This document shows positions 8,980 through 35,187 of a DNA stretch of 64,000 bases, piece after piece. The first letter of the stretch is position 1. Every line of letters begins with the position of its first letter. This DNA comes from Dehalococcoidia bacterium (lineage in GTDB: Bacteria > Chloroflexota > Dehalococcoidia > UBA2979): the NCBI GenBank assembly GCA_965198045.1, contig CBDAOL010000012.1, positions 346,105-410,104 of the forward strand, written 5' to 3'. The notes under the pieces were generated by a model. It saw only the letters and a program-made list of their open reading frames with translations. It ran no database searches and was not told the DNA's origin. Made by a program: the position numbers and the translations under genes.

Positions 8980-9002
8980 GCCGTCGGCGTATTCTGTCGC
9001 GG

Positions 9003-9605: not shown

Positions 9606-9608
9606 ACG

Positions 9609-13759: not shown

Positions 13760-13799
13760 ATCACTCAACTGCGCGTAGTGCGCGCGCGCATGCGCATGG

Positions 13800-13826: not shown

Positions 13827-13865
13827 ATCCCTAAGCGCAGCGCACTTCGGTCGAGAGGAATCGAG

Positions 13866-15657: not shown

Positions 15658-15789
15658 GCGTGCACCAGACACCGTACGAGGCGTCCTCAGCGTGGTCAAT
15701 CGCGCGGCCTTCCTCGTCTCTCTGCGTCGATCTACACTCGGAGCAGCTCGTGCTGCGCGGTGTCGCGCGGCGAGTAGAGGGGCGGAGCC

Positions 15790-16038
15790 ATGCCGAGTAG
15801 CAGTCGACGTCGGCAGCCGCGCCGGCGGCCGCCGCCGCGCCCCACTTACCGCGGCGCGCCCGTCGCGGAGGAGGTCGAGGAGCGACAGCCTTCCACCTCG
15901 GCACGCGCCTCGAGGCCGGCCGTGTACATCGCCCGGCAGACGCCCTACCTCTTCGGTGAGCTGCGGCGTGTGTTGCTGACGAGCGCGGCCTGCTTCGGCC
16001 TGCTCGTGCTGCTAATCGTCGTCGACCGGCTGCAGTAG
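15790..16038 (+). CDS. Hypothetical small membrane protein (basic N-terminus, single C-terminal TM)
   Basis: 82 aa. The C-terminal segment …FGELRRVLLTSAACFGLLVLLIVVD is TM-like. Low confidence because the region is GC-rich and ORFs are frequent. Confidence 0.3.
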   Translation: MPSSSRRRQPRRRPPPRPTYRGAPVAEEVEERQPSTSARASRPAVYIARQTPYLFGELRRVLLTSAACFGLLVLLIVVDRLQ

Positions 16039-19163: not shown

Positions 19164-20612
19164 CTACTCGTACCCCGGCGGTGGCTGAAACCCGCCCGTC
19201 ACGTCGGCCAGGCGACGCGCGAAGTCGATCGGCGTGCGGTCCTCGAGGTGCGGACCAACGATCTGCATGCCGACGGGCAGGCCGTCTTCGCTGAGCCCGA
19301 TCGGTGCCACGGTTGCCGGGAGGTAGGCCATCGTGATCAGCCCAACCCAGCTCAGCTGGTCGAAGTAGTTGCGGTCCTCCCCGTTGATGGGGATGGTCCG
19401 TTCCTGCGCCGGACTGTGGTCGTGCTCGATCGCAGTCACCGGCGTGACCGGCATCAACAGCACGTCGTACTCGCGGAAGAAGTGTGACCACTCGTATCGG
19501 ATCTGCTCCCGCTTCTCGTTGAGGAAGAGCCACTCCCGGTGGCGCTGGGCGCCGTTGCGCTGAACGGCCGGTGGCTCCTCGTCGTCTTCCGAGGGCAATG
19601 CGTCCTCGACGGTCGTCGCACCCTCGAGGATCTCGCCGGTGAGCCCGCGACCGCCGTTGCCGGCCAGCAACGAGCGGTACACGCGGTTCGTCTCAGCGAA
19701 ATCGATACCCGGGCGGGCGGCCTCGTCCACCTCGACGCCGGCGGCGCGCAGGGCGCCGACCGTCGCCTCAAGGGGGGCCAGCACGGCCGCGTCGACGCTG
19801 CAGGCCGCGTCGTCGAGCCATGCAGCCACACGGTAGCCACGCAGCGTGGCGCGCCGCGGGGGCGGCAGCTCGAGGCGCCAGGCGGCCGACATGTCGGCCT
19901 CCGGTCCGGCCACGATCGACAGCTCCAGATCGAGATCCTCGGCGCTACGTCCGAGGGGCCCGGCGACGGACAGGTCGCCGACGGCCATGAACCCGGGCGG
20001 CTGCACGCGCTTGCGAGGCACGATGCCGAAGGTGGGCTTGTGTCCGTAGATGCCGCTGTAGTGAGCGGGGTTGCGGATGGAGCCACCAATGTCGCTGCCG
20101 AGGTCGAGCGCGCTCATGCCCGTCGCCAGCGCCACGGCCGTGCCTCCCGATGAACCGCCCGGGGCACGCGTCTGGTCCCATGGGTTGTTCGTCGTCCCGT
20201 AGACGTCGTTGTAGGTCTGCACGTCCATGCCGTTGAGCGGTGAGTTCGTCACGCCGAAGACCACTGCTCCCGCCGCCACGAGCCGGTCGACGGCCGGTGC
20301 ATTGGCCTCGGCGATCCGCTCCGCGAACTGCGGATCGCCGGAGGTCCAGGGGAAGCCCTTCGTCTCGAACAACTCCTTGATGGTCATCGGCAGGCCGTGG
20401 AGCGGGCCCCACAGCTCGCCCCGACCGAGCGCCGCGTCGGCCTCATCGGCGCGGGCGCGGGCCGTGTCGACGTCGGTCGCGACGATCGCGTTCAGCGCCG
20501 GGTTGAAGCGCTCCACGCGTTCGACGTAGTGCTCGAGGAGCTCCCGCGAGCCGATCTCCCGGCTGCGGAGTATCCCGGCCAGTTCAACCGCGGGTCGGAG
20601 AGCGATGTCCAT
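19164..20612 (-). CDS. Amidase-signature family amidase
   Basis: …GGSSGGTAVALATGMSALDLGSDIGGSIRNPA… is the canonical amidase-signature GGSS[GS]G…G[ST]D.GGS.R.P segment. 482 aa. Confidence 0.85.
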   Translation of the reverse strand: MDIALRPAVELAGILRSREIGSRELLEHYVERVERFNPALNAIVATDVDTARARADEADAALGRGELWGPLHGLPMTIKELFETKGFPWTSGDPQFAERIAEANAPAVDRLVAAGAVVFGVTNSPLNGMDVQTYNDVYGTTNNPWDQTRAPGGSSGGTAVALATGMSALDLGSDIGGSIRNPAHYSGIYGHKPTFGIVPRKRVQPPGFMAVGDLSVAGPLGRSAEDLDLELSIVAGPEADMSAAWRLELPPPRRATLRGYRVAAWLDDAACSVDAAVLAPLEATVGALRAAGVEVDEAARPGIDFAETNRVYRSLLAGNGGRGLTGEILEGATTVEDALPSEDDEEPPAVQRNGAQRHREWLFLNEKREQIRYEWSHFFREYDVLLMPVTPVTAIEHDHSPAQERTIPINGEDRNYFDQLSWVGLITMAYLPATVAPIGLSEDGLPVGMQIVGPHLEDRTPIDFARRLADVTGGFQPPPGYE

Positions 20613-20702
20613 GCTGTCGTCCGGATGATGCGGCTTAACGACGGTCGTCGCCTCGCGTGGCCGAGATGATAGCTGGCGTGCCGGTGCGTGCCCGTGGGCG
20701 AC

Positions 20703-21326
20703 TCAGTCGATGTCTATGTCGACCGCCAGCACCTCGGCGATCGCGCGCCGTGTCACGTCGTAGCTGAAGCCACGGCGCTGGAGGTAGCCGTACAACCGCT
20801 GCCGCCGGAGGTCCGGTTCGAGTCGGCGCAGGCTCGGGACGCGCCGTCGAGCCGTGGCGATCGCCGCCGCTGCTTCGTCGAGGTTGTCTGTGGCTGCCTC
20901 GACGTGCTCGCGGGGGACGCCGCGGCGCACGAGGTCCTGGCGCAAGCGTCGGGCGCCGAGCCGTCCGCGGCGCGCCTCGACGAACTCGGTCGCCCAGCGG
21001 GCGTCGTCCAGGTAGCCGAGCTGCCGCAGACGATCGACTGCGGTGTCGATCTCCTCGTCTGCGAACTGACGCCGGAGGCGCTGCCGCAGCTCATGTTCCG
21101 TGTGCGAGCGGCGCGAGAGCGACGCGAGTGCACGCTCGAGGGCGAGTCGTCGCCGACCGGTGGCCCGCAGCTCCGCCCATTCGCTCTCCTCAAGGGCGAC
21201 GCCTTCTGATAGCGCGCGCGCCTCGACGGGCTCGCGCGCGAGGAGATGCTCGCCCGGTTCGCCGGCCAGCTGGATGGCGATGGCGCCGCGGCGGCGCGTG
21301 ATCGACGTGACGGTCGGCATAACCAC
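20703..21326 (-). CDS. recX: Regulatory protein RecX
   Basis: 207 aa. Directly downstream of recA with 15-bp spacing. Arg/Leu-rich three-helix-repeat composition; RecX-like (…RSHTEHELRQRLRRQ…). Confidence 0.8.
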   Translation of the reverse strand: MVMPTVTSITRRRGAIAIQLAGEPGEHLLAREPVEARALSEGVALEESEWAELRATGRRRLALERALASLSRRSHTEHELRQRLRRQFADEEIDTAVDRLRQLGYLDDARWATEFVEARRGRLGARRLRQDLVRRGVPREHVEAATDNLDEAAAAIATARRRVPSLRRLEPDLRRQRLYGYLQRRGFSYDVTRRAIAEVLAVDIDID

Positions 21327-21341
21327 GACCCTCGTCGAGGA

Positions 21342-22466
21342 CTATGCGTCGATCGAGAGCTGCTCGGCCTCGGCTTCGGCCTCAGCGGCCACGGACTCGG
21401 CCTCCGCCTCGACGGCGGTCGGAGCCTCGTCCGGCTTGCCTACGGGCATGGCGTTGATCCCGGCGGCTTCCCGCACGAGGTTTTCGACCTCGTCGCGGAG
21501 GTCGAGGTGCTCGCGCATGAAGTCGCACGAGTTCATGCGCCCCTGGCCGAGGCGCTGGTCGCCGTACGAGTAGAACGAGCCGAGCTTGCGCACGATCTCG
21601 TGCTCCACGGCGAGGTCGAGGATGTCTCCCTCGCGGTTAATACCGTGCTGGTCGCCGGTGAACATGATGTCGAACTCGGCCATTCGGAAGGGCGGCGCGA
21701 CTTTGTTCTTGACGACCTTGCAGCGCACGCGGTTGCCGATGAACGTTTGGCCGTCTTTCAGCGACTCGATGCGGCGGATGTCGATGCGCACGGAGGAGTA
21801 GAACTTGAGCGCGCGGCCACCCGGGGTGGTCTCCGGGTTCCCGAAGACGACGCCAATCTTCTCGCGCAGCTGGTTGATGAAAATGAGTGCGGTGTCGGTG
21901 CGAGCGACTGCCGCGGTCAGCTTACGCAGTGCCTGCGACATCAACCGCGCCTGCAGGCCCGGCAGGGAGTCGCCCATGTCGCCTTCGATCTCCGCGCGCG
22001 GGACGAGTGCCGCGACCGAGTCGATGACCACCGCCTCGACGGCGCCCGAGCGGATCAGCGCCTCGCAGATTTCGAGCGCCTGTTCGCCGGTGTCGGGCTG
22101 CGACACGAGCAGCTCGTCGACGTCGATGCCACAGGCGGCGGCGTACTCCGGGTCGAGTGCGTGTTCGACGTCGATGTAAGCCGTCGTCCCGGTCTTCTGC
22201 GCCTCCGCGATAATGTGCTGCGCCAGCGTGGACTTGCCCGCCGATTCGGGACCGAAGATCTCGGTGACACGCCCGCGAGGCAGGCCGCCGATGCCCAGCG
22301 CGATATCGAGGGAGAGTGACCCGGTTGGGATGGCGGAGACGTTCATCGCTGCCTCGGGATCGCCGAGACGCATGATCGCGCCCTTGCCGAAGTCCTTCGT
22401 GATCTGTTCGAGGGCCTTCTCGAGGGTGTCGGGGTGTTCCTTCGGTTGCTTCTTCTTGGCGGCCAT
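21342..22466 (-). CDS. recA: Recombinase RecA
   Basis: Walker [12 protein letters not shown] plus strong RecA identity throughout (…[36 protein letters not shown]…, ...[14 protein letters not shown]…). Real start is MAAKKKQ (cat at 22464..22466). The track's 39-codon upstream extension is junk. Confidence 0.95.
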
Positions 22467-22585
22467 GGCGTGTCCCTGTTTCGTTCCGTCGTACCGGTTC
22501 TTCTTGTCTCGTGCCCTCGCTCCAGAACGCCTGTGGCTCGTGCCACGCTGGCCGCTGTGCAGCCCCCACCGCGTTCCGAACACTA

Positions 22586-22601
22586 GTAGAACGCCCGTTC
22601 T
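22586..22601. promoter_or_regulatory. Cheo-box-type LexA (SOS) operator TAGAAC-GCCC-GTTCTA upstream of recA
   Basis: Perfect GAAC-N4-GTTC palindrome extended to AGTAGAACG/CGTTCTACT, about 120 bp upstream of the recA start. This matches the Gram-positive/actinobacterial LexA-box consensus. Confidence 0.7.
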
Positions 22602-22728
22602 ACTGTCAAGCCGGCCGAACGGGCGGACGTGAGTGGTGCCTCGATCCTACGCCGAAGATCGGATCACGTGCGTGTGCAGTATGGAACTCTGGCGTGATAG
22701 AAATCTCGCGCCAACCGTGTCTCGAGGG

Positions 22729-23307
22729 CTACTCGAAGTGGGGCGCGAAGTCCGGATTCGCGGCTGCGAACTCCTCGGCGGTGATGCCGAATAGCACCTC
22801 GTCGAAGTAGCGGCCGCCGGTCAGATACGCGCGCCGTCGCCGGCCCTCCTCGACGAACCCGAGCTGCTCATGCATGACGAGCGAGGGCGCGTTGAACTCA
22901 TAGACCTCGGCGTGACCTTTCTGGAAGCCCAGTTCGCCGAAGTAGTAGCGCAGCAGGATGCGCACGGCGTCGCGGGCGTACCCGCGGCGACGGTGCTCGG
23001 CGAAGATGCCGATCCCGTACCAGAAGACGCCGCTGCGGGGGTCGGTGCGCGAGGCGCTCAGCGAGCCGACGATCTCTCCCTCGGCCGACTCGATCACGAA
23101 GCTGCGGTCGCGTCCGTCACGGTTGAGCGCGTGTTCTTCAACCCACTTCTTCGTCGCCGCGGCGGACTGAGGCGGCGTGACCCACCAGCCGGCGCGGGCC
23201 ATCTCCGTGTCCTGGTCGTGGCTCCAGAACGTTTCCCAGTCGTCCGTCTCGTGCGCACGCAACCGCACGAGGTCTCCGCGGAACAGGTTCGGCAGCTCTT
23301 CGGTCAT
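22729..23307 (-). CDS. GNAT-family N-acetyltransferase (RimJ/RimL-like)
   Basis: …FAEHRRRGYARDAVRILLRYYFGELGFQKGHAEVYEFNAPSLVMHEQLGF… is an acetyl-CoA-binding GNAT core. Start is MTEELPNLF (cat at 23305..23307) with a GAGGGGGA RBS. Confidence 0.8.
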   Translation of the reverse strand: MTEELPNLFRGDLVRLRAHETDDWETFWSHDQDTEMARAGWWVTPPQSAAATKKWVEEHALNRDGRDRSFVIESAEGEIVGSLSASRTDPRSGVFWYGIGIFAEHRRRGYARDAVRILLRYYFGELGFQKGHAEVYEFNAPSLVMHEQLGFVEEGRRRRAYLTGGRYFDEVLFGITAEEFAAANPDFAPHFE

Positions 23308-23358
23308 GTGTCCCCCTCGACGTTGTGCGGGTCCACGCCGAGGGGCGAGCATAGGGCG

Positions 23359-23637
23359 ATGCCACGCCCGGACACAGCGCGCGCGCTGCTCGACGTTCGA
23401 CTCACCCCTCGTGCTTCGCGTGGCAGCGTCGAGGTCGACGGCGACCTCGTGCGGGTGCGCGTCACGGCGCCGCCCGTTGACGGTCGCGCGAACGCCGCGC
23501 TGGTCGAACTGCTGGCCAAGCGCCTCGGCGTCCCGAAGCGCGATGTGGCGATCGTGCGCGGGCTGTCGTCGAGGACGAAGCGCGTGGCGGTCGAGGGGAT
23601 GACGGTCGCTGAAGCCTTCGAACGGCTTCGCGCCTAG
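23359..23637 (+). CDS. DUF167 (YggU) family protein
   Basis: 92 aa. …VRVRVTAPPVDGRANAALVELLAKRLGVPKRDVAIVRGLSSRTKRVAVEG… matches the YggU/DUF167 consensus (…AppveGkAN.al..fLak.l…v.i..G..sr.K…). Confidence 0.75.
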   Translation: MPRPDTARALLDVRLTPRASRGSVEVDGDLVRVRVTAPPVDGRANAALVELLAKRLGVPKRDVAIVRGLSSRTKRVAVEGMTVAEAFERLRA

Positions 23638-23643
23638 GGCGGA

Positions 23644-23895
23644 TCAGCCCTGATAGTCGGTCAGGACACCCGCGATGATGAAGAGCGTGATGATCGCGAC
23701 CATCGGGCTGATGTCGATCATCCCGATCCGCGGGATGATCCGGCGCAGCGGTTCGAGCACCGGATCGGTGATCGCCTCGAGGGCCCGCACGACCGGGCCG
23801 CCGCGGTCGATGGGGAACCAGGAGATGATGGCGCGCGCGAAAATAGCGAACGCCAGCAGCTGTACCAGCAAACCGACGCCCTGAACGACTTCTAC
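23644..23895 (-). CDS. yggT: YggT-family membrane protein
   Basis: …LLVQLLAFAIFARAIISWFPIDRGGPVVRALEAITDPVLEPLRRIIPRIGMIDISPMVAIITLFI… fits the YggT pattern. Probable GTG start near 23895; the track ORF start at 23949 would overlap proC by 50 nt. Confidence 0.65.
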   Translation of the reverse strand, partial: VEVVQGVGLLVQLLAFAIFARAIISWFPIDRGGPVVRALEAITDPVLEPLRRIIPRIGMIDISPMVAIITLFIIAGVLTDYQG

Positions 23896-23899
23896 CAAG

Positions 23900-24709
23900 C
23901 TATGCCCCCAGCTCTCTGCCTCGATTATATGCGGCCTCGATGGCAGCATCGAAAGCTGCGCGTGCGGCGTGCGCGTCGAGTGCCGCGAGCCCCGCGGCGG
24001 TGGTGCCGCCGGGCGAGGTGACGGCGTTGCGCAGCTCGGCGAGCGTCTCGTCGCTCTCGCGCGCCCAACGCGCCGTGCCCTCGAACGTCGCGAGCGCGAG
24101 CGCTTCGGCGTCGGGGCGTTTGAGGCCGAGCCGAATGGCGGCGTCGATCATCGCCTCCATCGCCAGCAGGACAAAGGCCGGTCCGCTGCCGTGGAGCGCC
24201 GTGCCGACATCGATCAGCGCGTCGCTATCCACCTCGACGACCGCGCTCGCGACCGCGCCGAGGATCTCCTGCACGTGCGCACGTTGCGCCTCGCTGACGG
24301 CCGGGGCGACGAAGTAGGCGGCCGCGCCCGCACCGACCGAGGCGGGCAAATTCGGCATCACACGCACCACCGCTTCGTGTTGCGTGCGTTCGCGCAGCTC
24401 GCCGAGTGTGATGCCGGCGGCGATCGAGATTACGACTGCGTCGGAGGGGATATCGCCAGCCATCTCCTCGGCGACCGTCGCGAAGTCCTGCGGTTTCACG
24501 GCAATCAGCACGACATCCGCCGCCGCGAGAGAGTCGGCGGCGTTCGCGGTGACCGATACGCTGTAGCGCTCCGCCAGTTCGAGGCGACGCGCGGGGAAGA
24601 TCTCGGCGACGGTCACGGTGTTGGGCTCGGCTACCTCGGCGCGCAGCATCCCGGCGAGAAAGCCCTCGCCCATCTTCCCGCCGCCGACGAGGGCGACGCG
24701 CAGCGCCAT
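23900..24709 (-). CDS. proC: Pyrroline-5-carboxylate reductase
   Basis: N-terminal Rossmann fold VALVGGGKMGEGFLAGM and a P5CR C-terminal dimerisation domain (…TSPGGTTAAGLAAL…). Confidence 0.9.
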   Translation of the reverse strand: MALRVALVGGGKMGEGFLAGMLRAEVAEPNTVTVAEIFPARRLELAERYSVSVTANAADSLAAADVVLIAVKPQDFATVAEEMAGDIPSDAVVISIAAGITLGELRERTQHEAVVRVMPNLPASVGAGAAAYFVAPAVSEAQRAHVQEILGAVASAVVEVDSDALIDVGTALHGSGPAFVLLAMEAMIDAAIRLGLKRPDAEALALATFEGTARWARESDETLAELRNAVTSPGGTTAAGLAALDAHAARAAFDAAIEAAYNRGRELGA

Positions 24710-25401
24710 CAGCGCGCCCGTTCCTGCCGCGGCCCAAAGATCGCGCGACCGACGCGGACCACGGTCGCGCCCTCTTCGATCGCGACTTCGAAGTCGTCGG
24801 TCATGCCCATCGAGAGGCCGTCGAGGCCGTGTGCAGCGGCGAGCGTGGCCAGCTCGCGGAATAGCGTGCGCAGGTCCTCGGGGTCGTCGGCCTGCGGCGC
24901 GACGGTCATGAGGCCGCGCAGCTCCACCGCCTCGCTTTGTCGCGCAGCCTCGAGGATCGGTGCGACGTCGGAGGGCGCGAGGCCGTGCTTCTGCGCCTCG
25001 CCGCCAATGTTGACCTCGACGTAGCAGTCGCGGGGGCGCATGCCCTCGGAGCGGCGCTCGATTTCCGTGAGGAGGCGCTCGGAGTCCAGCGAGTGGAGGA
25101 CAGCGATGTGGGCCAGCACCTGGCGCACCTTGTTTCGCTGGAGGTGCCCGACGAAGTGCCAGCGCGGCTCCAGGCCTGCCTCGGCGGCCGTCTCGGCCTT
25201 CGGCGCGAACTCCTGTGCCCGATTTTCGCCTAGATCGACGAGGCCGGCGTCGAGGGCATCCCGCACGGCCTCGACGCCATGCGTCTTCGACACGCCGACC
25301 AGCTGCACCCCGGTGGGATCGCGGTCAACGCGGTCACAGGCCGCGTGGATGCGCGCCCGCACCTCGGCGAGCCGCAGGGCGAGCTGAGTGATTGTGATCA
25401 T
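24709..25401 (-). CDS. yggS: YggS-family pyridoxal-phosphate homeostasis protein
   Basis: …LVGVSKTHGVEAVRDALDAGLVDLGENRAQE… and …WHFVGHLQRNKV… match the YggS/PLPHP consensus. 230 aa. Confidence 0.9.
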   Translation of the reverse strand: MITITQLALRLAEVRARIHAACDRVDRDPTGVQLVGVSKTHGVEAVRDALDAGLVDLGENRAQEFAPKAETAAEAGLEPRWHFVGHLQRNKVRQVLAHIAVLHSLDSERLLTEIERRSEGMRPRDCYVEVNIGGEAQKHGLAPSDVAPILEAARQSEAVELRGLMTVAPQADDPEDLRTLFRELATLAAAHGLDGLSMGMTDDFEVAIEEGATVVRVGRAIFGPRQERAR

Positions 25402-26300
25402 ACCACCAAGTGTAGTGCGCTGATTGATGCGATCGACTGTGCTGACGCGGCTACGGAGCCTCTGCGGTCACCACCCACGTCGCTGAGTCGGTCTGCACGC
25501 CCTCGGGGCCGAGGTGGTCCGCGAGCACGTCTCCGATCGAGCCTCGGATCGCGGCCGCCAGCTCCGGGTCGCGCTCGTCGAGGCCCGGCGACCCCGGGGT
25601 TGAGGGTGTACATGAAGTCAACCGCCTCCTCGAGCGTGTCGCCGAGCTGGACCTGGAGCCGCACGTCCTGGAGGTTCACCTCGGCGTAACCTGCTTCGCC
25701 GAGGATGCTGCGGACGCGCTCAGGGTCGGCGAGCGAGAGCGGCCCGGGCGCGGTGGGGTCGCCGCCCATGGGAAACTCGATGTGCTGCCGCGCCGCCATG
25801 ATCGGCTTCGATACCCAGGGGTTGTCCGCCGCGCCCTGCCAGCAGGAGAAGACCATGCGCCCGCCGGCACGCAAGCCCGAGCGGAGATTGGCGAAGGCAG
25901 CGACCGGGTCCGCGAAGAACATCACGCCGAAGCGCGAGAAGATGAGGTCGTAGGCGTCCGCCTCGAACGCATGCGCCTGCGCGTCGGCGGTGAGGAACGA
26001 GATGTTCGAGGCGCCTGCCGCTTCGGCACGTGCGCTGGCCGCGTCGACCATGGTCTGGCTGAGGTCGAGCGCGACGACCACGCCATCGGGCGCAACCGCT
26101 GCGGCCAGCGGCACTGCGGTGGTGCCGGTGCCGCAGCCAACGTCGAGGACGCGCTTGCCCGGCTGCGCTGCGGCCACATCGAGGGCGCTCTGGCCATGCT
26201 CCGCAACCTGAGCGTCGAGCTGGTCCTGCATTGCGGCCCAGATGGGGCCGACGTTGGCCCAGAACTTGGCCTGCGGTTCGTTGCCCGGGGCGATCTGCAT
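25398..26300 (-). CDS. Class I SAM-dependent methyltransferase with an apparent frameshift near a CCCCGGGG homopolymer (C-terminus probably in another frame, ending ~25451)
   Basis: Motif I VLDVGCGTGT plus a methyltransferase core. After …AVDFMYTLNPG (about 25600) the annotated frame becomes Arg-rich junk. The +1 frame gives protein-like …PGLDERDPELAAAIRGSIGDVLADHLGPEGVQTDSATWVVTAEAP ending with a stop at 25451..25453. Confidence 0.65.
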   Translation of the reverse strand: MQIAPGNEPQAKFWANVGPIWAAMQDQLDAQVAEHGQSALDVAAAQPGKRVLDVGCGTGTTAVPLAAAVAPDGVVVALDLSQTMVDAASARAEAAGASNISFLTADAQAHAFEADAYDLIFSRFGVMFFADPVAAFANLRSGLRAGGRMVFSCWQGAADNPWVSKPIMAARQHIEFPMGGDPTAPGPLSLADPERVRSILGEAGYAEVNLQDVRLQVQLGDTLEEAVDFMYTLNPGVAGPRRARPGAGGRDPRLDRRRARGPPRPRGRADRLSDVGGDRRGSVAASAQSIASISALHLVV

Positions 26301-26387
26301 CGTGGCTCCTGACTGTCCGCACGCGGACGTGCGCCATGTGCGGCGGTGAGCCTACCGCATCTGCTTCAGGCGGTGTCGTGTGGTCTG

Positions 26388-28034
26388 TTAGCAGACGCCG
26401 CAAAGCTTGCAGCCGACCTCGGGGGGCGGGCAGGCGATGGTGGATTTCACCCGGTGGTGCTTGTCCATCTCGCGCAGCAGGAAGGGCTCCGTCAGGCCAA
26501 CGTCCACGATGTGCCATGGCGGCGCTTCGCCCTCCCACGGGCGAGGGCCATCGAGGCCATGTTCGCGGATGGCGCGGCGGTAGCTGCCGAGGCTGTTGTC
26601 GGTCATGTCCTCGAGCATCGTCGCGACGCGATCGTCGCCACGCGAGAGCACGTCGTCGACGCGGGCTGTCCAGGCGGAATCGGTGCGCAACTCGATGCCG
26701 TTGGGGGCCAGGCGCTGCTTGAGGATGCCCTGGCGTTCTTTGACCATCCGGATATCGTTCGCGTCCTCGTACTGGTACGCCGTCCAAGGCTTCGGCACCG
26801 TGGGGCTGACCGACATCACGAGCCGGGTGTCCCTGCCGCCGGCGTCGAGGCGTTCCTTGATGCGGTTGCCGAGTTCGGCCATGGCATAGACGTCGTTGTC
26901 CTCTTCGCCCGGCAGGCCGACCATGAAATAGAGCTTGAAGCGCCGCGCGCCGGACTGGCCGACGAGGTCGGCGCCTTCGAGGATCTGCTCCTCCGTCACG
27001 CCCTTGTTGATCGCGGCGCGCATCCGTTCCGAGCCGGCCTCGGGCGCGACGGTGACCGTCTTCGTGCCGCCGGCGGCCAGGGCCTCGAGCACGTCCGCCC
27101 TCAGGTTGTCGACGCGCAGCGAGGAGATCGAGACGCGCGCGCCTCGTTCATGAGCGCCGACGACGAGCTCGGAGAGGTCCGGGTGGTCCGCGACGGCGGC
27201 GCCGAGGAGCCCGACGCGCTCGGTGTGCTCGACCGAGTGCTCGATGAGCTCGAACAACTCCTCGAGGGGCCGGTAGCGCGGTGGGCGGAACACGTAGCCC
27301 GCGATGCAGAAGCGACAGCCGCGGCCGCAGCCGCGGGCGCATTCGATCAGCGTCATGTCGGACAGCTCAGTGTCCTCGGTGATGACGGTCGAATATGCCT
27401 CGGTGCCCGCGAGGTCGTGGACGTACTGGCGTTCGATGGCGCCGAAGGCCGGCGGGCGCGTCGGCACGTAGACCCCCGGGATCGTGGCGAGCGTGTCGAG
27501 CAGATCCGCGCGCGAGCCATAGAGACCATCGCGCCACGCGGAGACGAGGTGCGGAACGATCTCCTCGGCCTCGCCGACGATCGCGGCGTCGAGGAAGGGC
27601 GCGACCGGCGCGGGGTTGGTGAGCATGCAAGCCCCACCGGCGATCACGAGCGGATGGCGGTCGTCGCGTTCCTCGGCGCGCAGGGGGATGTTGGCGCTGC
27701 GCAGGCACTGGATCATGTTGAAGTAGTCGAACTCGTAGGACAGCGTGAACGCGACGACCGAGAAGTCCTGCAGCGGCCGCTGCGACTCCAGCGACACGAC
27801 CGGCATCGGGTGGTATTCGCCGGGCCCCGGCGGGTCGTAGAAGGCGCGCTCGCAGACGAAGTCGTCGTAGGCGTTCAGCATCGAGTAGATGGTCTGCAAC
27901 GCCAGGTTCGACATGCCGATGTAGTACGAGTTCGGGTACGTGATCGCCACGGGGATGCGGGCGCCCCAGTCCTTGGAGGTGCCCCCCCGCTCCTTGCGGA
28001 GCCGGTCACGGGCGATCTGCCGCACATCAGCCAT
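26388..28034 (-). CDS. B12-binding-domain radical SAM protein
   Basis: N-terminal B12-binding-like region, a radical SAM cysteine motif (CARGCGRGCRFCIAGY) and a C-terminal domain. 548 aa. Confidence 0.8.
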   Translation of the reverse strand: MADVRQIARDRLRKERGGTSKDWGARIPVAITYPNSYYIGMSNLALQTIYSMLNAYDDFVCERAFYDPPGPGEYHPMPVVSLESQRPLQDFSVVAFTLSYEFDYFNMIQCLRSANIPLRAEERDDRHPLVIAGGACMLTNPAPVAPFLDAAIVGEAEEIVPHLVSAWRDGLYGSRADLLDTLATIPGVYVPTRPPAFGAIERQYVHDLAGTEAYSTVITEDTELSDMTLIECARGCGRGCRFCIAGYVFRPPRYRPLEELFELIEHSVEHTERVGLLGAAVADHPDLSELVVGAHERGARVSISSLRVDNLRADVLEALAAGGTKTVTVAPEAGSERMRAAINKGVTEEQILEGADLVGQSGARRFKLYFMVGLPGEEDNDVYAMAELGNRIKERLDAGGRDTRLVMSVSPTVPKPWTAYQYEDANDIRMVKERQGILKQRLAPNGIELRTDSAWTARVDDVLSRGDDRVATMLEDMTDNSLGSYRRAIREHGLDGPRPWEGEAPPWHIVDVGLTEPFLLREMDKHHRVKSTIACPPPEVGCKLCGVC

Positions 28035-28102
28035 TGGATCAGTGTACGGGCGGAATCAGTCGAGGGCAGCGCGACCTCGATGTCGGTCTGCGTCCCCGAA
28101 GG

Positions 28103-28393
28103 TCAGGCGTAGGGGTCGGGTCGGCCCTCTCTGATCGCCTCTTCGCGCTCATCCTGGATGCGCTTGTCTCGGCGCACCAGCGGCCAGGCGCCGAAGACGA
28201 TCACCGCGAGCGGGATCAGAGCGAGGATTGCGTTCGCCAGCAAGAAATACAGCGTGAGCATCAGCAGCGCGATCGCCCCGAGGAACATCGCGAGCGGCGG
28301 TCCCAGTACCGCGAAGACCGCCCTGAGGATGGCCCAGACCTCGCTCCAGGTTCCGGCCTGCGGGTCATCCTGCGGATCGTATCCATACGACAT
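28103..28393 (-). CDS. Small hypothetical membrane protein
   Basis: Real start MSYGYDPQDDPQAGTWSEVW (cat at 28391..28393). Two TM helices (…ILRAVFAVLGPPLAMFLGAIALLMLTLYFLLANAILALIPLAVIVFGAW…). Confidence 0.5.
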   Translation of the reverse strand: MSYGYDPQDDPQAGTWSEVWAILRAVFAVLGPPLAMFLGAIALLMLTLYFLLANAILALIPLAVIVFGAWPLVRRDKRIQDEREEAIREGRPDPYA

Positions 28394-28493
28394 GGCGACA
28401 GTGTACGGGCTCCGCGAAGCCCGCTTCGGACGCCGAAGCCGGCCGTGGTAGCGTGTCGCCTCGAACGTCGCGACAGGCGAAGGGAAGTCCTCG

Positions 28494-28910
28494 ATGGAGA
28501 TGCCGCCCCAGGAGTACGAGCCGCTGCTGATGGAGGCGAACCACGCCATCATCACGGTCTCTCGTGGCGACGGCCGGCCGCCGCACTCGACGCCGGTCTG
28601 GTACGTCTACGGCGAGGGTCGTTTCTACGTCTCGATGACGAAGGACACTGTGAAGTACCGGCTGATGCAGCAGCGCCCAGAGATCTCGCTGACCATCGAC
28701 TCGGACGGCCCGACGGTCGTGGTCGAGGGCACAGCCGTGCTGCGCGACGACGACGGCTTCCTCCTGCAGATGGCGAAGGAGGTCAACGCGCTCTACCGAC
28801 CCAGCCTTGAGCTGCCACCCGACGAGGAGCTGCTGGCGCAGCGGAAGGCGGAGAACCGCACCGTGCTCATGCTCGAACCCTCGAGGGTGAAGGCGTGGGG
28901 CCTGTCGTGA
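28494..28910 (+). CDS. Pyridoxamine 5'-phosphate oxidase-like (PPOX class, probably F420/FMN-binding) protein
   Basis: 138 aa. …ANHAIITVSRGDGRPPHSTPVWYVYGEGRFYVSMTKDTVKYRLMQQRPEISLTID… fits the split-barrel PPOX family. Confidence 0.7.
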   Translation: MEMPPQEYEPLLMEANHAIITVSRGDGRPPHSTPVWYVYGEGRFYVSMTKDTVKYRLMQQRPEISLTIDSDGPTVVVEGTAVLRDDDGFLLQMAKEVNALYRPSLELPPDEELLAQRKAENRTVLMLEPSRVKAWGLS

Positions 28911-29791
28911 CGGAGGGCGTCTCCTCGACGTTGTACTTCGGCGATGTCGCGGTCACCCGCGTCGAGGAGTTGGTCCTGCCCACGGCGATGTGGTGGCTGC
29001 TCCCCGACGCGCCCGAGGACGCGGTGGAGCGCCATCGCGAGTGGATGGCGCCCTTCGTCAACGAGCGTGGCCACATCCTCCAGAGCATCCACACGTTTGT
29101 CGTGAAGGCGGACGGCCTGACGATCCTCGTCGACACCGGGGTCGGCAACGGCAAGGAACGCGACGGCGGGATCCCGGCCTTCCACATGCTCGACACGCCC
29201 TACCTCGAGCGGCTGGCCGCGGCCGGCGCAGCGCCCCAGGACATCGACCTCGTGCTCATCACGCACATGCACACGGACCACTGTGGCTGGAACACCACAC
29301 TCGTCGACGGCGCGTGGCAGCCGACGTTTCCGAACGCGCGCACCCTCTACGTGCGGCGCGAGTGGGAGTACTGGGACGGCCTGGCGCGCAGCGACGAGGG
29401 CAATCAGCTCGTCGAGGACAGCCTGCGGCCGGTCGAGGCGGCCGGCCTCGCCGACCTCGTCGAGGCGGACCATGTCGTCACGCCCTCGCTGCGGCTCGAG
29501 CCGAGCCACGGGCACACGCCCGGCCACGTCTGTGTGCGCATCAGCTCCGGCGGCGACGAGGCGGTCATCACCGGCGACGTCATGCACTCGCCGATCCAGT
29601 GCGCCTACCCCGACCCGCAGCCGCGGCTCGAGAACGACGCCGAACCCGCACGCCTGGCCCGCCGCGCCTTCCTCGAGCGCTACGCCGACAGCGGCGTCAC
29701 GGTCCTCGGCACGCACTTCGGCGGCCCTACCGCCGGTCACATCACCGCCGACGGCGACGCCTACCGCTTCGACGTGGTCGAGGGGTTCTAG
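28895..29791 (+). CDS. MBL-fold metallo-hydrolase (lactonase-like)
   Basis: HxHxDH motif ITHMHTDHCGW, with later His/Asp ligands (…HGHTPGH…). Confidence 0.85.
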   Translation: MGPVVTEGVSSTLYFGDVAVTRVEELVLPTAMWWLLPDAPEDAVERHREWMAPFVNERGHILQSIHTFVVKADGLTILVDTGVGNGKERDGGIPAFHMLDTPYLERLAAAGAAPQDIDLVLITHMHTDHCGWNTTLVDGAWQPTFPNARTLYVRREWEYWDGLARSDEGNQLVEDSLRPVEAAGLADLVEADHVVTPSLRLEPSHGHTPGHVCVRISSGGDEAVITGDVMHSPIQCAYPDPQPRLENDAEPARLARRAFLERYADSGVTVLGTHFGGPTAGHITADGDAYRFDVVEGF

Positions 29792-30306
29792 GCGGGTCCG
29801 GCGTCTCGCGCGAGGTGGTAGCGCACGCTGGGCGTGCCGTGGTCGTCGTAGCGCGCCACCAGCGAGGCGCCGAGGCGTGCCGCGACGCCCCGCGCGCCGC
29901 GGTTGGCAACTGCCGTCTCGATGATGACCTCAGAGAGGTGGAACGCCTCGAACGTGTAGCCGACGAGGGCGCCTGCGGCCTCCGTAGCGATGCCGGCGCC
30001 GCGGGCGTTCGGATCGAGGGCGTAGCCGACCTCTCCGTGATTGGCGCGCCGCACGAGGCTCAGCAGGCCGATCAGTGCGCCATCCTCGACGCGCTCGATC
30101 GCGAGGTCGAAGAGGGCGTCGAGCTGCCAGGCATCGAGCGCGGCCTGTACGTAAGCGGCCGCGGCCTCCTCGGTCCTCCCGAGATTCGCCGCAGCGGCGT
30201 AGACATCGGGATCGGCGTTCAGTTCCAGGATCGCGGGTACGTCGGAGGGCTCGAAGCGACGAAGCAGCAGCCGCCTCGTGAGGATCGGGAGTCCGTCGTC
30301 ACGCAC
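29788..30306 (-). CDS. GNAT-family N-acetyltransferase
   Basis: 172 aa. …LVRRANHGEVGYALDPNARGAGIATEAAGALVGYTFEAFHLSEVI… is a GNAT acetyl-CoA-binding core. Confidence 0.8.
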   Translation of the reverse strand: MRDDGLPILTRRLLLRRFEPSDVPAILELNADPDVYAAAANLGRTEEAAAAYVQAALDAWQLDALFDLAIERVEDGALIGLLSLVRRANHGEVGYALDPNARGAGIATEAAGALVGYTFEAFHLSEVIIETAVANRGARGVAARLGASLVARYDDHGTPSVRYHLARDAGPA

Positions 30307-30308
30307 GG

Positions 30309-32540
30309 TCAGCTACAGCGCGTGTAGCCGCAGCTCTGGCAGGTGAGGCAGCGTTCGAGGTATTCCATCTGCTGGCCGCAGTCCGGGCACGTCAGGCCCG
30401 AGGCCTCGGCGACCGCTGGCGCCACCGCATCGCCGGCGTCGGCGAGGCCGAAGTGCAGCCGCAGCCAACGGAAGATGTAGTCGAGGACGCTCGTGGCAAA
30501 GGGGATCTCCGCGTTGGCGGTGATGCCGTAAGGCTCGAAGCGCGTCTGTTCGAGCTTCGCTGCGATCTTCTCGAGGCTGACGCCGTATTGGAGCGCGATC
30601 GAGGTCATCAGCGCGACGGCGTCGGTCAGTCCGGAGACGGTCGAGCCCTCCTTCGCCATCTTCACGAAGACCTCGCCCGGGGTGCCGTCCTCGAAGAGCC
30701 CGACCGTGACGTAGCCCTCCTGGTCGCCAACCCGGAACTTGTGCGTGATCGACTGGCGCTCGTCGGGGAGGTGGCGGCGGTAGGGCTCGCTCGCCGGGCG
30801 GTGCGCCGGCGTTTCGTCCGAGGCGTGAGCGAGGACCTGGACCGCGCGCGAGCCATCGCGGTAGACCGTCACGCCCTTGCAGCCGAGCTCGTGCGCCAGC
30901 TCGTAGACCTCGCGAATCTCCTCGACGGTGGCCTCGCGCCGGAGGTTCTCGGTCTTCGAGACGGCGAGGTCAGTGTGGGCCTGGAACGCGGCTTGCATGC
31001 GCACGTGCGTCTCGGCCGGCACCTCGTGCGCTGTCGCGAAGCGCTCGCGGAGGTCGTCCGGCACCTCGCTGCGGTCCGCCAGGGAAACGCCCGCGGCCAG
31101 CGCCTGGTCGAGATCGTCGGACGCGAATCCGGCGGCGTCCGCGGCTGCTCGGAAGGCGGCATTGACCTCCGGCAGCAGCGTGCCGTCGCCCATGCGGCGC
31201 TGGTGGGCCAGTGAGAACAGCGGCTCGATGCCCGAAGAGGCGCCGGCGATGATCGCGATCGTGCCAGTGGGGGCGATGCAGGTACGGGTGGCGTTGCGGA
31301 AGGTGCGCCCGCCGGCGTAGACCGACTGCTCCCAGTTCGGGAAGACACCCTTCTCGATCCCCAGCTCTGCCGAGGCGTCATCGGCGGCCGCGCCGACCTC
31401 GGACGAGAGCCGCGTAGCGAGGGCGATCGCCTCGGCAGTCCCGTAGGGGAGGCTGGCCGCGATCAGCAAGTCGGCGAAGCCCATCATGCCGAGGCCGATC
31501 TTGCGATTGCCTCGCACCGCCTCGGCGATCTGCGGGACCGGGAACGTGTTCGCCTCCACGACGTTGTCGAGGAAGCGGACCGCAAAGCGGACGGTCGCTC
31601 GCAGCGCGGACCAGTCGAGGTCGCGCGTGGACTCGTCCCAGAAGCGCGCGACGTTGATCGAGCCGAGCGTGCAGGCCTCCCACGGCAAGAGCGGCACTTC
31701 GCCGCAGGGGTTGGTCGCCTCGATCTCGCCGAGGAGCGGTGTGGGGTTGGTGCGATTGATCGTGTCGAGGAAGACGAGCCCCGGGTCGCCGGTCTGCCAG
31801 GCCGAACGACAGATCTCGTTGAGCAGCTCGGCGGCGTCCACCTCGCCACGTGGCGAGCCGTCGCGAGGGTCGCGCAGCGGGTAGCTCTCGCCGGCGGCTG
31901 CGGCGCGCATGAAGGCGTCTGTCACGCCGACGGAGATGTTGAAGCGCGTTGCCGTAACGCCGTCGTCCTTTGCGTGGACGAACTCACGGATGTCGGGATG
32001 ATCGACGCGCAGCACGGCCATGTTCGCCCCGTCGCGCTTGCCGCCCTGCGTCACGAGGCGCGAAACGTCGTCGTAGTGCTGCAGGACGGAGACGGGCCCG
32101 CAGGCGGCCCCGTGCGTCGTGGCGATGGGCTCGCCGACGCCTCGCAGCCGGGAGAGCGAGAACCCAGTGCCGCCGCCGTACTTCTGCACCAGGGCGGTGG
32201 CCTGAGCGGTGGACATGATCGATTCGAGCGTGTCCTCGACGGGCAGGACGAAGCAGGCGGCGAGGGTGCCCTGACCCGTGCCCGCGTTCATCAGCGTCGG
32301 TGAGTTCGGCAGGAAGCGGAGCGCCGCCATCTCGTCGTAGAAACGCTGCGCCCAGAGCAGGCGCGCCGGCTCGTCCGTCTCCACCTCGGCGATGGCCGTC
32401 GCCACGCGCGCCAGCATCTCCTCGGGCGTTTCGCGCAGCTCACCCTCCGCGTCACGCAGCAGGTAGCGCCGTTCGAGGACCGTACGGGCGTTGTCGGTCA
32501 GCTCGACGGGTGTCGTGCGGACATCGCTGGTGGCGACCAT
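30309..32540 (-). CDS. nrdJ: Class II (adenosylcobalamin-dependent) ribonucleotide reductase
   Basis: 743 aa with the class II RNR core (…NPCGEVPLLPWEACTLGSINV…) and a C-terminal zinc ribbon (CPDCGQQMEY…CLTCQSCGYTRC). Confidence 0.95.
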   Translation of the reverse strand: MVATSDVRTTPVELTDNARTVLERRYLLRDAEGELRETPEEMLARVATAIAEVETDEPARLLWAQRFYDEMAALRFLPNSPTLMNAGTGQGTLAACFVLPVEDTLESIMSTAQATALVQKYGGGTGFSLSRLRGVGEPIATTHGAACGPVSVLQHYDDVSRLVTQGGKRDGANMAVLRVDHPDIREFVHAKDDGVTATRFNISVGVTDAFMRAAAAGESYPLRDPRDGSPRGEVDAAELLNEICRSAWQTGDPGLVFLDTINRTNPTPLLGEIEATNPCGEVPLLPWEACTLGSINVARFWDESTRDLDWSALRATVRFAVRFLDNVVEANTFPVPQIAEAVRGNRKIGLGMMGFADLLIAASLPYGTAEAIALATRLSSEVGAAADDASAELGIEKGVFPNWEQSVYAGGRTFRNATRTCIAPTGTIAIIAGASSGIEPLFSLAHQRRMGDGTLLPEVNAAFRAAADAAGFASDDLDQALAAGVSLADRSEVPDDLRERFATAHEVPAETHVRMQAAFQAHTDLAVSKTENLRREATVEEIREVYELAHELGCKGVTVYRDGSRAVQVLAHASDETPAHRPASEPYRRHLPDERQSITHKFRVGDQEGYVTVGLFEDGTPGEVFVKMAKEGSTVSGLTDAVALMTSIALQYGVSLEKIAAKLEQTRFEPYGITANAEIPFATSVLDYIFRWLRLHFGLADAGDAVAPAVAEASGLTCPDCGQQMEYLERCLTCQSCGYTRCS

Positions 32541-32593
32541 GGTTCAGCCCCGCGCTCCGGACCCGATCCGCGGCTGGACCAGCCGGCGGGGAG

Positions 32594-32609
32594 TAGAACA
32601 TATATTCTA
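32594..32609. promoter_or_regulatory. Cheo-box-like palindrome TAGAAC-ATAT-ATTCTA in the nrdR-nrdJ intergenic region (nrdJ promoter)
   Basis: agtagaacatatattctact (32591..32612 with flanks) shares the extended arms AGTAGAAC…TTCTACT with the recA operator. One mismatch to GAAC-N4-GTTC. Does not fit the NrdR-box consensus. Confidence 0.5.
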
Positions 32610-32703
32610 CTCGCTGACAAGCGGACGCCACAAGGGTCCACGATCCAGTTTAGACCGCGGGCTCGGAGGCCGTGGTGGCGGGCGGTAACGCCTGTGCCTG
32701 AAC

Positions 32704-33327
32704 CTAGACCGGCCGCGCCGCGCGTGCGGCGTCGAGGGAGATCGGTGAGGCGGTCGCCGCCGCCTCCTCGATCGGGGCGTCCTCGATCGGTGCGTCCGAG
32801 GGCTCGGCGAGCGGCTCGTCCTCGAGGGCGGCGGCAAGTTCGTCGGCGAAGAGGCGCTGCTGCTCGGGGCCGGGCGGGTCGGGCGTGAGGGCGAGACGCT
32901 GCAGCTCTTCGAGCATCTCCTCGAGCGACACGAACTGGTGGTAGACGCTCGCGAAGCGGATGTAGGCGATCGGGTCGAGCGGCTTCAGCCGGGAGATCGC
33001 CATCTCACCGATCACGCGGCTCGCGACCTCGCTCTGGGTCGAGCCAGTGAGGCGCTGCTCGATGTCTTCGACGATGGCGTCGATGGCGCCTGTGGCGAGG
33101 GGGCGCTTGCGCGCCGAGATGCGCAGGCCCGTCAGCAGCTTCTCGCGCTGGAACTCCTCGCGTCGGCCGTCCTTCTTGACGACCATGACAGTTCGTCGCT
33201 GGACCTGCTCGAGGGTCGAGAAGCGCTGTTCGCAGTGCTGGCAGAGCCGTCGGCGGCGGATCCCGCCCTCACCGGTGCGCGAGTCGACGACCTTGCTGGC
33301 GGTGCGGCCACAGAACGGGCACTTCAT
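32704..33327 (-). CDS. nrdR: Transcriptional repressor NrdR (with extended acidic C-terminal tail)
   Basis: N-terminal MKCPFCG…SKVVDSR…RRRRLCQHCEQRFSTLE zinc ribbon plus an ATP-cone. Acidic tail extends from ~150 aa. Confidence 0.9.
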   Translation of the reverse strand: MKCPFCGRTASKVVDSRTGEGGIRRRRLCQHCEQRFSTLEQVQRRTVMVVKKDGRREEFQREKLLTGLRISARKRPLATGAIDAIVEDIEQRLTGSTQSEVASRVIGEMAISRLKPLDPIAYIRFASVYHQFVSLEEMLEELQRLALTPDPPGPEQQRLFADELAAALEDEPLAEPSDAPIEDAPIEEAAATASPISLDAARAARPV

Positions 33328-33579
33328 GACGAACGAGCACTCTCTGGGGGAGCTCGGCAGTGGCTCGAGTGACGGTCTGGGGGGTCCGGTCGGGTGGGTG
33401 ACCTCGACGCAGCCAGTACAGCACGCGACTCATCGAGGCCACAACGGGACTCGTCAACAGGTCGTTGCGATGTTGTCCCAATCGACGGTTTGCGCTGTGG
33501 AGTGTGGCCGCCGCGGGCGCGCCGAACGCGACGACGGCGGCCCTCACGGGGCCGCCGTCGCTTGGTCCGTCCAGGCCTG

Positions 33580-35139
33580 CTAGCGGCTGGTGAAACTCCG
33601 CCGCAGGAAGGTCGGCAGGTCAGCCTCGGTCAGCGAGTCGGTGGGGTCTGGCGTGATCTCGCCGAGCTTGATCGTGGCCGCCTCCATCTCCTCAGCCATC
33701 GTCTGACGGATCTGCGTCGGGCGCGTGCCCGAGAAGCCGGTGGCGATCACGGTCACCCGCACCTCGTCGGCCACGCTCTCATCCACGGCGGTACCGAAGA
33801 TGATTTCGGCGTCCGGGTCGACGACCTCGGCGATCACGCGCGCAGCGAGATCGAGCTCGCGGAGCGAGAGGTTGGCGGGGCCAGTGACGTTGAACAGCAC
33901 GCCCGTTGCGCCGGTGATGTCCACCTCGAGGAGCGGGCTGGCGATGGCCTGCCGCGCCGCGTCGATGGCCCGCGCCTCGCCTCGGCCGCTGCCGATGGCC
34001 ATGAGCGCCGGTCCAGCGTCGGTCATGATCTTGCGCACGTCGGCGAAGTCGAGGTTGACCATGCCGGGGACAGTGATCAACTCGCTGATGCCCTGGATGC
34101 CCTGGCGCAGCACATCGTCGGCGGCGCGGAAGGCGTTCTCGATCGAGATCGCGTCATCCGAGAGGTGCAGCAGCCGATCGTTGGGGATGACGATCAGCGT
34201 GTCGACCTTGTCCTGGAGGTCGCGGACGCCTTCCTCCGCCTGTTGACGCCGCTTGGCGCCCTCGAACGTGAACGGCTTCGTCACCACGCCGATGGTCAGC
34301 GCGCCGAGCTCCCGCGCCACCTCGGCCACGATCGGGGCCGCGCCGGTGCCGGTGCCGCCGCCGAGGCATGCCGTGACGAACACCATCTCCGCGCTGGCGA
34401 GCGCCTCGGCCAGGGCCTCGCGTGACTCCTCGGCGGCGCGCTGGCCGCGCAGTGGGTCGCTGCCCGCGCCGAGGCCACGCGTCAAGCGGTCGCCGATGCG
34501 CACCTTGACCTCCGCCGGGCAGTGCTCCAGCGCCTGAATGTCCGTGTTGATGGCGACGTACTGCACCCCCGGCAGCCTCGCGTCGATCATGCGGGTGACG
34601 GCGTTCGAGCCGCCTCCGCCGACTCCGGCGACCTTGATCGGCGGCAGTCCTTCGTAGCGTTCCAGCATCTCCTGCTCCTGTTCCGCCGAGGCGCTGCCGC
34701 TCGGCGTGCCGGTCGCGGGGCGTCCGGCGCTTGCTCGCTTGTTCTTGGCCGCTGCGGCGGGCGCCGGATCGGCCTCAAATTCAGACTGGATCTCCGCCGC
34801 CGGCTGCTCGGCCGTCAGGTCGAGTGCCGGCTGCTCCTCGAGTTCCGCCGAGGGCAGCATTGGAATCTCGGCCCCGTCGGCCGGCTCGTCGACGGCGACG
34901 AGCTGGAAGGCGGGTCGCGACGCCTGCTCGGCGGTGGACGCTTCGTCCGCCCCCTCGCCTGCGGCGGAGGCGCCCGCGCGTCGCGCCTCCTCGCGCGCGG
35001 CGGCGAGGTAGTCGAAGAGCGTGCCCGCACCGATCGACGGTCCGCTGCCCTGACTCGTGGTCGCGGCATCGGTGGCGGCATCCGCCGTCGCCGTCGCCTC
35101 GGTTGCGACCCCGGTTGTTGCTGTGTCCTGGTCGCTCAT
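33580..35139 (-). CDS. ftsZ: Cell division GTPase FtsZ, apparently with a ~157-aa acidic low-complexity N-terminal extension
   Basis: Core starts …[24 protein letters not shown]… with the GGGTGTG tubulin signature and a C-terminal DLPTFLRR peptide. The in-frame upstream 157 codons are Ala/Thr/Glu/Asp-rich (not Arg-rich junk) and close the gap to ftsA (48 bp). Alternative canonical start is the ATG at 34668. Confidence 0.9.
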
Positions 35140-35187
35140 TTGTGTCCCATTCCTCTCGCCTGTCGTGCTCGGGGCATGCCGCGGTGG

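Follow-up and report, generated by a model that had tools for sequence, protein, structure and literature searches.

Does a branch of the Chloroflexota control its ribonucleotide reductase with the regulator that acts on recA? The question is raised by a 64,000-nucleotide stretch of DNA from a Dehalococcoidia bacterium (hereafter the window, to whose numbering all positions refer), in which palindromes of one type stand upstream of recA and of nrdJ, the gene for an adenosylcobalamin-dependent (class II) ribonucleotide reductase. The palindromes are of the kind known as the Cheo box, the operator CGAAC-RNRY-GTTCG of LexA (DinR) in Bacillus subtilis and other Gram-positive bacteria. We found that the nrdJ motif lies over conserved promoter elements, is conserved in about 50 species, and corresponds to the recA operator in both core and spacing. 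We consider it likely that a dedicated nrdJ promoter is held down by LexA and released upon DNA damage. The genes and palindromes concerned are the following.

21342-22466, minus strand: recA (NCBIfam TIGR02012, 511 bits)
30309-32540, minus strand: nrdJ, class II ribonucleotide reductase of 743 residues (TIGR02504 NrdJ_Z, 632.7 bits against a cut-off of 400)
32704-33327, minus strand: nrdR, 207 residues including a long tail at the C terminus (TIGR00244, 157.6 bits; cut-off 124.65)
22585-22604, both strands: recA operator AGTAGAACGCCCGTTCTACT, a perfect 20-bp palindrome with its core, a perfect GAAC-N4-GTTC, at 22589-22600
32592-32611, no strand assigned: nrdJ operator AGTAGAACATATATTCTACT, a 20-bp near-palindrome with a Cheo-type core at 32596-32607

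The recA operator lies 119 nt before the recA ATG. The nrdJ operator lies 52 nt before the nrdJ ATG, within the 163-nt gap that separates the nrdR stop codon from the nrdJ start; the N terminus encoded from this start (MVAT...) is kept in relatives. On the nrdJ-sense strand the operator core reads GAATATATGTTC and matches at seven of the eight core bases, the mismatch being ATTC for GTTC on the plus strand, or GAAT for GAAC on the nrdJ-sense strand. Nine of the ten palindromic pairs are intact, and the four flanking pairs are identical to those of the recA site. Such sequences are rare in the window. The recA site is the sole perfect GAAC-N4-GTTC in the 64 kb, a search for TAGAAC-N4-GTTCTA with at most one mismatch returned only the recA and nrdJ sites, and the pattern common to both, AGTAGAAC-N5-TTCTACT, occurred in none of 100 dinucleotide-preserving shuffles of the window. 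The original prediction had described both palindromes, with a perfect core at recA and one core mismatch at nrdJ, and had named the genes as recA, nrdJ and nrdR; the sequence search and the NCBIfam models bear this out, although the start and end that it gave were each one base off. Two other loci in the window, a DinB/YfiT-family protein (PF05163, not DNA polymerase IV; 8973-9605) and priA (51785-54520), have no Cheo-like box nearby.

We assessed the conservation of the two sites in a comparison set obtained by scanning a genome collection with NrdJ, which yielded 80 loci (L001 to L080), one for each GTDB species, with up to 10 kb of flanking sequence and 1.43 Mb of DNA in total. The NrdJ relatives of the window are all from uncultured Dehalococcoidia or other Chloroflexota, the closest being L005 (97% identity). 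An actinobacterial origin, which the G+C content and the recA-recX pair could suggest, is ruled out by these relatives. The close relatives are the 54 species whose NrdJ is at least 67% identical; they are distinct GTDB species of Dehalococcoidia/Chloroflexota, with NrdJ identities of 67-78%. At all 20 loci in which recA could be reached, a perfect GAAC-N4-GTTC lies 47-186 nt upstream of it. With the window and a box from L008, which is counted here although no recA match was found in L008 to identify the gene downstream, 22 of 22 recA-type boxes are perfect. In the alignment of these 22 sites the right half-site is invariably followed by TA, and the left flank is variable.

The nrdJ boxes are almost as widely conserved. 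Within 130 nt of the nrdJ start codon, 27 of the 54 relatives have a perfect core and 20 a core with one mismatch, leaving 7 with none; the boxes of these 47 species lie 25-65 nt before the nrdJ ATG. As background, these 1.43 Mb contain perfect cores at a density of 0.046 per kb and one-mismatch cores at 0.36 per kb, so that chance would provide a perfect core at 0.6% of loci and a core with at most one mismatch at 5.3%. The enrichment at nrdJ is thus about 80-fold for perfect cores and about 16-fold when one mismatch is allowed (binomial p ~1e-45 and ~1e-54, respectively). Put differently, the 1.43 Mb contain 66 perfect cores, of which about 31 belong to nrdJ and about 22 to recA upstream regions, with about 13 at other places. 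Because the sequences flanking the box cannot be aligned between species, the box has been kept by selection and not by recent common descent. The proposal that recA and nrdJ share one Cheo-type operator is strongly supported by this conservation (22/22 at recA and 47/54 at nrdJ, against about 5% by chance), and nrdJ is accordingly a likely member of the SOS regulon.

Beyond the close relatives, L056-L058 (47% NrdJ identity; L058 is labelled Tepidiformaceae) have a perfect nrdJ box, and most other distant NrdJ genes are without one. One close relative, L010, has two perfect Cheo cores upstream of nrdJ (4343-4354 and 4420-4431), 77 nt apart. In the seven boxless species (L009, L011, L016, L017, L033, L036 and L048), nrdR is followed at once by a GC-rich hairpin (for example gacgcccggcc...ggccgggcgtc), and the short upstream region is unrelated. 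The hairpin looks like a terminator, and it is absent from the window.

To what extent is the nrdJ site the same operator as that of recA? Half-sites and spacing are identical between the two. We built a symmetrised weight matrix from the 22 recA sites alone and scored all 1.43 million positions of the comparison DNA. Thirty positions score at least 16 bits and 57 at least 10 bits, and those at or above 10 bits are nearly all upstream of recA or nrdJ. The recA site of the window scores 28.6 bits and its nrdJ site 15.9 bits, which places the latter at about rank 32.

The lower score could mean that the nrdJ palindrome is a true LexA operator by descent that is now decaying, such that a C-to-T change has largely freed nrdJ of this species from SOS control and has left the palindrome with a role chiefly as part of the promoter. 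The fall from 28.6 to 15.9 bits would fit such a history, as would the loss of the box in seven related species and the identity of the mismatched base, which is C in 46 of 48 aligned nrdJ sites and T only in the window and L005. However, a decaying site would hardly be expected to keep nine of its ten palindromic pairs and the same four flanking pairs as the recA site, and 15.9 bits is still above almost every non-target position in the 1.43 Mb. Imperfect operators are moreover the norm at nrdJ, where 20 of the 47 box-bearing relatives have one mismatch; at recA every operator is perfect. L005 has the same site, although at 97% NrdJ identity this is little informative. We regard decay as improbable, and favour instead a functional operator, probably of LexA, of reduced strength. 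Imperfect operators fit an enzyme that is needed at a basal level.

The original prediction had taken the extended arms shared by the two sites to indicate the same binding protein. The sharing holds in this species and L005, to which the left arm AGTA of the nrdJ site is restricted, but in other relatives the left flank varies. The right extended arm is partly explained in another way, because the right flank (TCTnAT) coincides with a predicted -10 hexamer, one of the following candidate promoter elements.

32615-32620, minus strand: candidate nrdJ -35 element, TTGTCA, 7 nt upstream of the operator core, recognised from conservation alone
32592-32600, minus strand: candidate nrdJ extended -10 element, TG-t-TCTACT, 17 nt after the -35 element and overlapping the promoter-proximal half of the operator
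22604-22609, minus strand: candidate recA -35 element, TTGACA, 3 nt upstream of the operator core, with TTGAC kept beside the box in the recA alignment
22580-22585, minus strand: candidate recA -10 element, TAGTGT, 18 nt after the -35 element, with TA(c/g)TGT after the box in most relatives

A generic sigma-70 scan called no promoter at either site, and the promoter elements are therefore inferred from conservation only. When the 48 nrdJ sites are aligned on the box, TTGC is kept at columns -13 to -10, followed by seven unconserved bases, the box, and T-n-A-T-A; columns +7 to +15 (T G T T C T n A T) have a high information content. The resulting consensus is TTGCgc-N17-TCTnAT with TG ahead of the -10 hexamer, and the corresponding parts of the extended -10 element in the window are TG at 32600-32599 and TCTACT at 32597-32592 on the minus strand. 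The predicted nrdJ transcript would begin about 7 nt past TCTACT. The last T of the operator spacer and the G of GTTC form a TG exactly where an extended -10 element needs it. The promoter-proximal half-site GTTC is invariant in the 48 sites, and the second base of the distal half-site varies (A in 33, T in 10, G in 3 and C in 2). At recA, the operator fills the spacer between the putative -35 and -10 elements. The position of the nrdJ box over the predicted core promoter would allow repression.

This anatomy also bears on the simplest alternative, which is that the nrdJ palindrome is a chance arrangement or plain promoter sequence to which no repressor binds. The right half does overlap the candidate -10 element and is the better conserved of the two, and with an empty promoter scan the promoter model is itself inferential. 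But the left half-site, G(a)AC, is also conserved across the 48 species despite lying in the promoter spacer, where promoter function constrains little. Nor does chance account for the failure of the shuffles to reproduce the shared pattern, or for the 16-fold and 80-fold enrichment over background at loci that are not near-identical copies of each other (their NrdJ identities are those given above, and their flanks have diverged). We consider this alternative highly improbable and retain the reading of the palindrome as a repressor-binding operator.

Which gene this operator serves is indicated by seven species in which a distance of 1-3 kb separates nrdR from nrdJ. The space is taken up by unrelated genes, part of them in the opposite orientation; going by their translations, with no family search made, their products include a putative membrane protein, hydrolase-like and dehydrogenase-like proteins, and zinc-ribbon membrane proteins. 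In all seven species the box and the -35 element stay directly before nrdJ. Thus the operator belongs to a dedicated nrdJ promoter, and because it lies downstream of nrdR, nrdR is not under its control. The original prediction had left open whether nrdJ or the whole nrdR-nrdJ unit belongs to the regulon; the first is likely and the second does not hold, as the box travels with nrdJ.

No terminator-like site was found in window positions 32300-33700, which include the region between nrdR and nrdJ, so that read-through from nrdR may add to the basal expression of nrdJ. A search of positions 20000-36000, including the nrdJ leader, gave no Rfam match at E values of up to 1. With neither a terminator nor an Rfam match, a riboswitch (for example one for cobalamin) or terminator reading of the nrdJ leader is ruled out.

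The usual regulator of nrd operons is NrdR, whose box is a 16-bp palindrome (acaCwAtATaTwGtgt), usually present as two copies in tandem (PMC2808921). A scan with the NrdR box ACACWATATATWGTGT found none in the window at up to five mismatches and none in the loci of the close clade at up to four. As a positive control, the same scan of the distant loci L058-L079 found boxes just upstream of nrdR or nrdJ, with tandem copies 31-32 nt apart in L067, L069 and L076. The original prediction had noted the lack of a canonical NrdR box, and the window scan agrees; its suggestion that SOS control acts in addition to NrdR control fares less well, given that no canonical NrdR box is found near nrdR or nrdJ in the clade.

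NrdR boxes and nrdJ Cheo boxes are almost mutually exclusive when L058-L079 are set against the window and L001-L055, L078 and L080. In distant Dehalococcoidia and in other phyla there are NrdR boxes, often in tandem, and no Cheo box, and the clade of the window has Cheo boxes, no canonical NrdR box, and a retained nrdR. L058 combines the two: an NrdR-like box precedes nrdR, and nrdJ is preceded by a perfect Cheo box.

This distribution invites the view that recA and nrdJ have different regulators, with the nrdJ palindrome as the site of, for example, an NrdR that has diverged or a LexA-like paralogue with a preference for AT-rich spacers, and with a likeness to the recA operator that is only partial. 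Apart from the near-complementarity of the two kinds of box, such a view can point to the position of nrdR directly upstream of nrdJ in most species, to the fact that no lexA was found in the window or the 80 loci, and to the spacers, which are GC-rich at recA (G/A-S-S-C/T) and AT-rich at nrdJ ((G/A)(T/C)AT, for example GTAT or ATAT), the form (G/A)TAT being conserved at nrdJ. The T that ends the nrdJ spacer is, however, explained by the TG of the extended -10 element. A different binder is also hard to square with half-sites and spacing that are identical to those of the recA operator, or with the appearance of the nrdJ sites among the top scores of a matrix that was built from recA sites only. 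The spacers at both genes fit the RNRY consensus of B. subtilis LexA.

For NrdR in particular, the AA and TT of the consensus are four bases apart (PMC2808921), compared with six in the Cheo core, and the two motifs can therefore not be superposed. The boxes of NrdR are normally in tandem, whereas nrdJ of the window has a single Cheo box, and L058 carries the two kinds of box separately. A reading of the nrdJ palindrome as a NrdR box is ruled out by sequence and spacing, and binding by a regulator different from that of recA seems to us unlikely overall.

The preferred reading is that the binder is most likely LexA, as at recA. recA is the archetypal LexA target, and the LexA proteins of Firmicutes, Actinobacteria and Dehalococcoides recognise GAAC-N4-GTTC; it is by analogy with these that LexA would be the protein that binds here, that its binding would repress, and that damage would induce. 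In the mechanism that we propose, a dimer of the putative LexA on the nrdJ operator would overlap the promoter spacer and the -10 element and block RNA polymerase, and its occupancy would keep nrdJ transcription low. DNA damage would lead to RecA filaments and these to self-cleavage of LexA, which would free the nrdJ promoter. The freed promoter would yield more class II ribonucleotide reductase and with it deoxyribonucleoside triphosphates (dNTPs) for repair and restart. Some reductase would be present at all times through leaky repression and read-through from the nrdR promoter; a basal level is to be expected because the nrdJ operator is the weaker of the two, with one core mismatch and the lower score, and no predicted terminator precedes nrdJ.

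A number of observations weigh against LexA control of nrdJ. The generic sigma-70 scan, as noted, called no promoter at the recA or the nrdJ site, and seven relatives lack the nrdJ box. Within the window, the core base is T where 46 of the 48 sites have C, and this C-to-T change may make the operator weak in this species. The contrast between AT-rich nrdJ and GC-rich recA spacers leaves room for a different binder, although the TG of the extended -10 element explains it in part. A tblastn search of the window and the 80 loci with E. coli and B. subtilis LexA probes found no lexA gene, and Pfam scans of 40 open reading frames of the window found no S24 peptidase or LexA domain. Finally, repression of what is possibly the sole ribonucleotide reductase looks costly unless the repression is partial.

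A broader proposal is that the clade has rewired the control of nrdJ, such that canonical NrdR boxes have gone and a LexA operator has come in their place, with dNTP synthesis as a core SOS function throughout the clade and NrdR acting elsewhere or through a diverged site. We offer this tentatively, as a possibility that we would not at present back over its negation. The region upstream of the nrdR -35 element (window 33415-33479, minus strand) contains a pair of elements, (G/T)GGACAA(c) and cTGTGGA(c/t), that is conserved in 43 of 44 loci. Both elements have the same orientation, with a distance of about 21 nt between them, and are followed by cgTTGtc and GTGcTGTACT. The copies in the window are GGGACAAC at 33479-33472, TGTTGAC at 33459-33453, TTGTGG at 33444-33439 and TGTACT at 33420-33415. 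These elements resemble high-GC DnaA boxes (TGTGGACAA); the second, which lies inside a CCACAG-n-CTGTGG palindrome, could be a shortened NrdR-type site. NrdR itself has 207 residues in the window and L005, including a tail of about 50 residues past the ATP-cone, and tblastn matches to other relatives stop at residue 160.

At the end of a cell-division cluster stand ftsZ and, directly after it, nrdR-nrdJ, and recA lies 8 kb further on the same strand. The division and cell-wall genes that come before nrdR-nrdJ (the region concerned is window 23644-49225) include rsmH, ftsI, mur ligases, mraY, ftsW, a murC-like gene, ftsQ, ftsA and ftsZ. The genes that usually come after ftsZ are displaced downstream: a gene for a YggS/YlmE-like pyridoxal phosphate (PLP) protein (24709-25467) and yggT (23644-24147) sit just ahead of a GNAT gene and recA. 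One further gene lies immediately 3' of recA.

20703-21326, minus strand: recX (RecX family models at E 5e-25, under the curated cut-offs)

The G+C content of the window is 64-73%. A probable integrated mobile element occupies about 9600-16000, a stretch of lower G+C content (64-65%) with genes for a resolvase, a large serine recombinase and a Prim-Pol/AAA_25 protein. An insertion sequence (IS)-type integrase (rve) is present at 688-1653.

The content of the SOS regulon varies widely among bacterial groups and tells which functions a lineage cannot do without when its DNA is damaged. Reports of direct LexA control of a ribonucleotide reductase have been sporadic, with nrdA of Leptospira as an example, and no link between LexA and nrdJ came up in our literature searches, which combined LexA with nrdJ, Chloroflexi or Dehalococcoides. 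If the reading proposed here is correct, dNTP supply belongs to the conserved SOS functions of about 50 species that make up a large, uncultured branch of the Chloroflexota, and the clade provides a clean case of NrdR sites absent where LexA sites are present. The motif and its two targets, recA and nrdJ, are ready for use in reconstructing the SOS regulon of these genomes.

How does this arrangement compare with known systems? It shares with the Bacillus Cheo box the GAAC-N4-GTTC core, its spacing, a dyad symmetry suited to a dimer, a position over or next to promoter elements, and its presence at recA; nrdJ sites such as GAACATATGTTC are the idealised Bacillus palindrome. It differs in its flanks, which are (T)A...TA(Y)T here and not C...G, in its host, a high-GC member of the Chloroflexota, and in that LexA binding is putative here. 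We know of no indication that nrdJ is a member of the Bacillus LexA regulon. Within the same class, Dehalococcoidia, the LexA of Dehalococcoides ethenogenes is said to have bound a GAAC-N4-GTTC box in gel shifts by Fernandez de Henestrosa and colleagues (J Bacteriol, 2002), such that the Chloroflexi use the Gram-positive motif; in that work it reportedly bound the lexA and uvrA promoters and not that of recA. In the present high-GC clade, by contrast, recA always has the box and nrdJ usually does.

Ribonucleotide reductase genes have been placed in SOS regulons elsewhere. In Leptospira interrogans, a chromatin immunoprecipitation sequencing (ChIP-seq) peak of LexA1 lies upstream of nrdA, which is induced by ultraviolet light (PMC4756842). 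The two cases have in common a reductase gene within the SOS regulon, but the Leptospira gene encodes a class I enzyme, the LexA motif is a different one, the site, at over 300 bp from the gene, is not on the core promoter, and the observation concerns one species. Given this precedent, the present case adds a new regulon member and not a new mechanism: nrdJ joins a known kind of regulon as a new and well-conserved member, and does so in a lineage whose regulon was undescribed. In Marinobacter, a LexA/SOS gene set labelled reg_LexA_SOS includes both subunits of the aerobic class I reductase, and nrdJ was induced and is not listed as a LexA target (PMC8233155). That set, which we take to be a RegPrecise-derived prediction, resembles our case in placing a reductase in the LexA regulon by comparative genomics; it differs in that the host is a gammaproteobacterium, the motif is CTGT-N8-ACAG, and the enzyme is of class I.

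The NrdR system, for which nrdJ is a typical target, likewise has an AT-rich palindrome near the promoter and an adjacent nrdR, and is set apart from the Cheo boxes described here by other half-sites and spacing and by tandem boxes in place of a single one. In E. coli, nrdAB is induced by DNA damage independently of LexA (PMC6590174). The physiological logic is the same in both cases, in that damage raises the reductase and dNTP pools, but here the promoter of the reductase gene carries a LexA-type operator.

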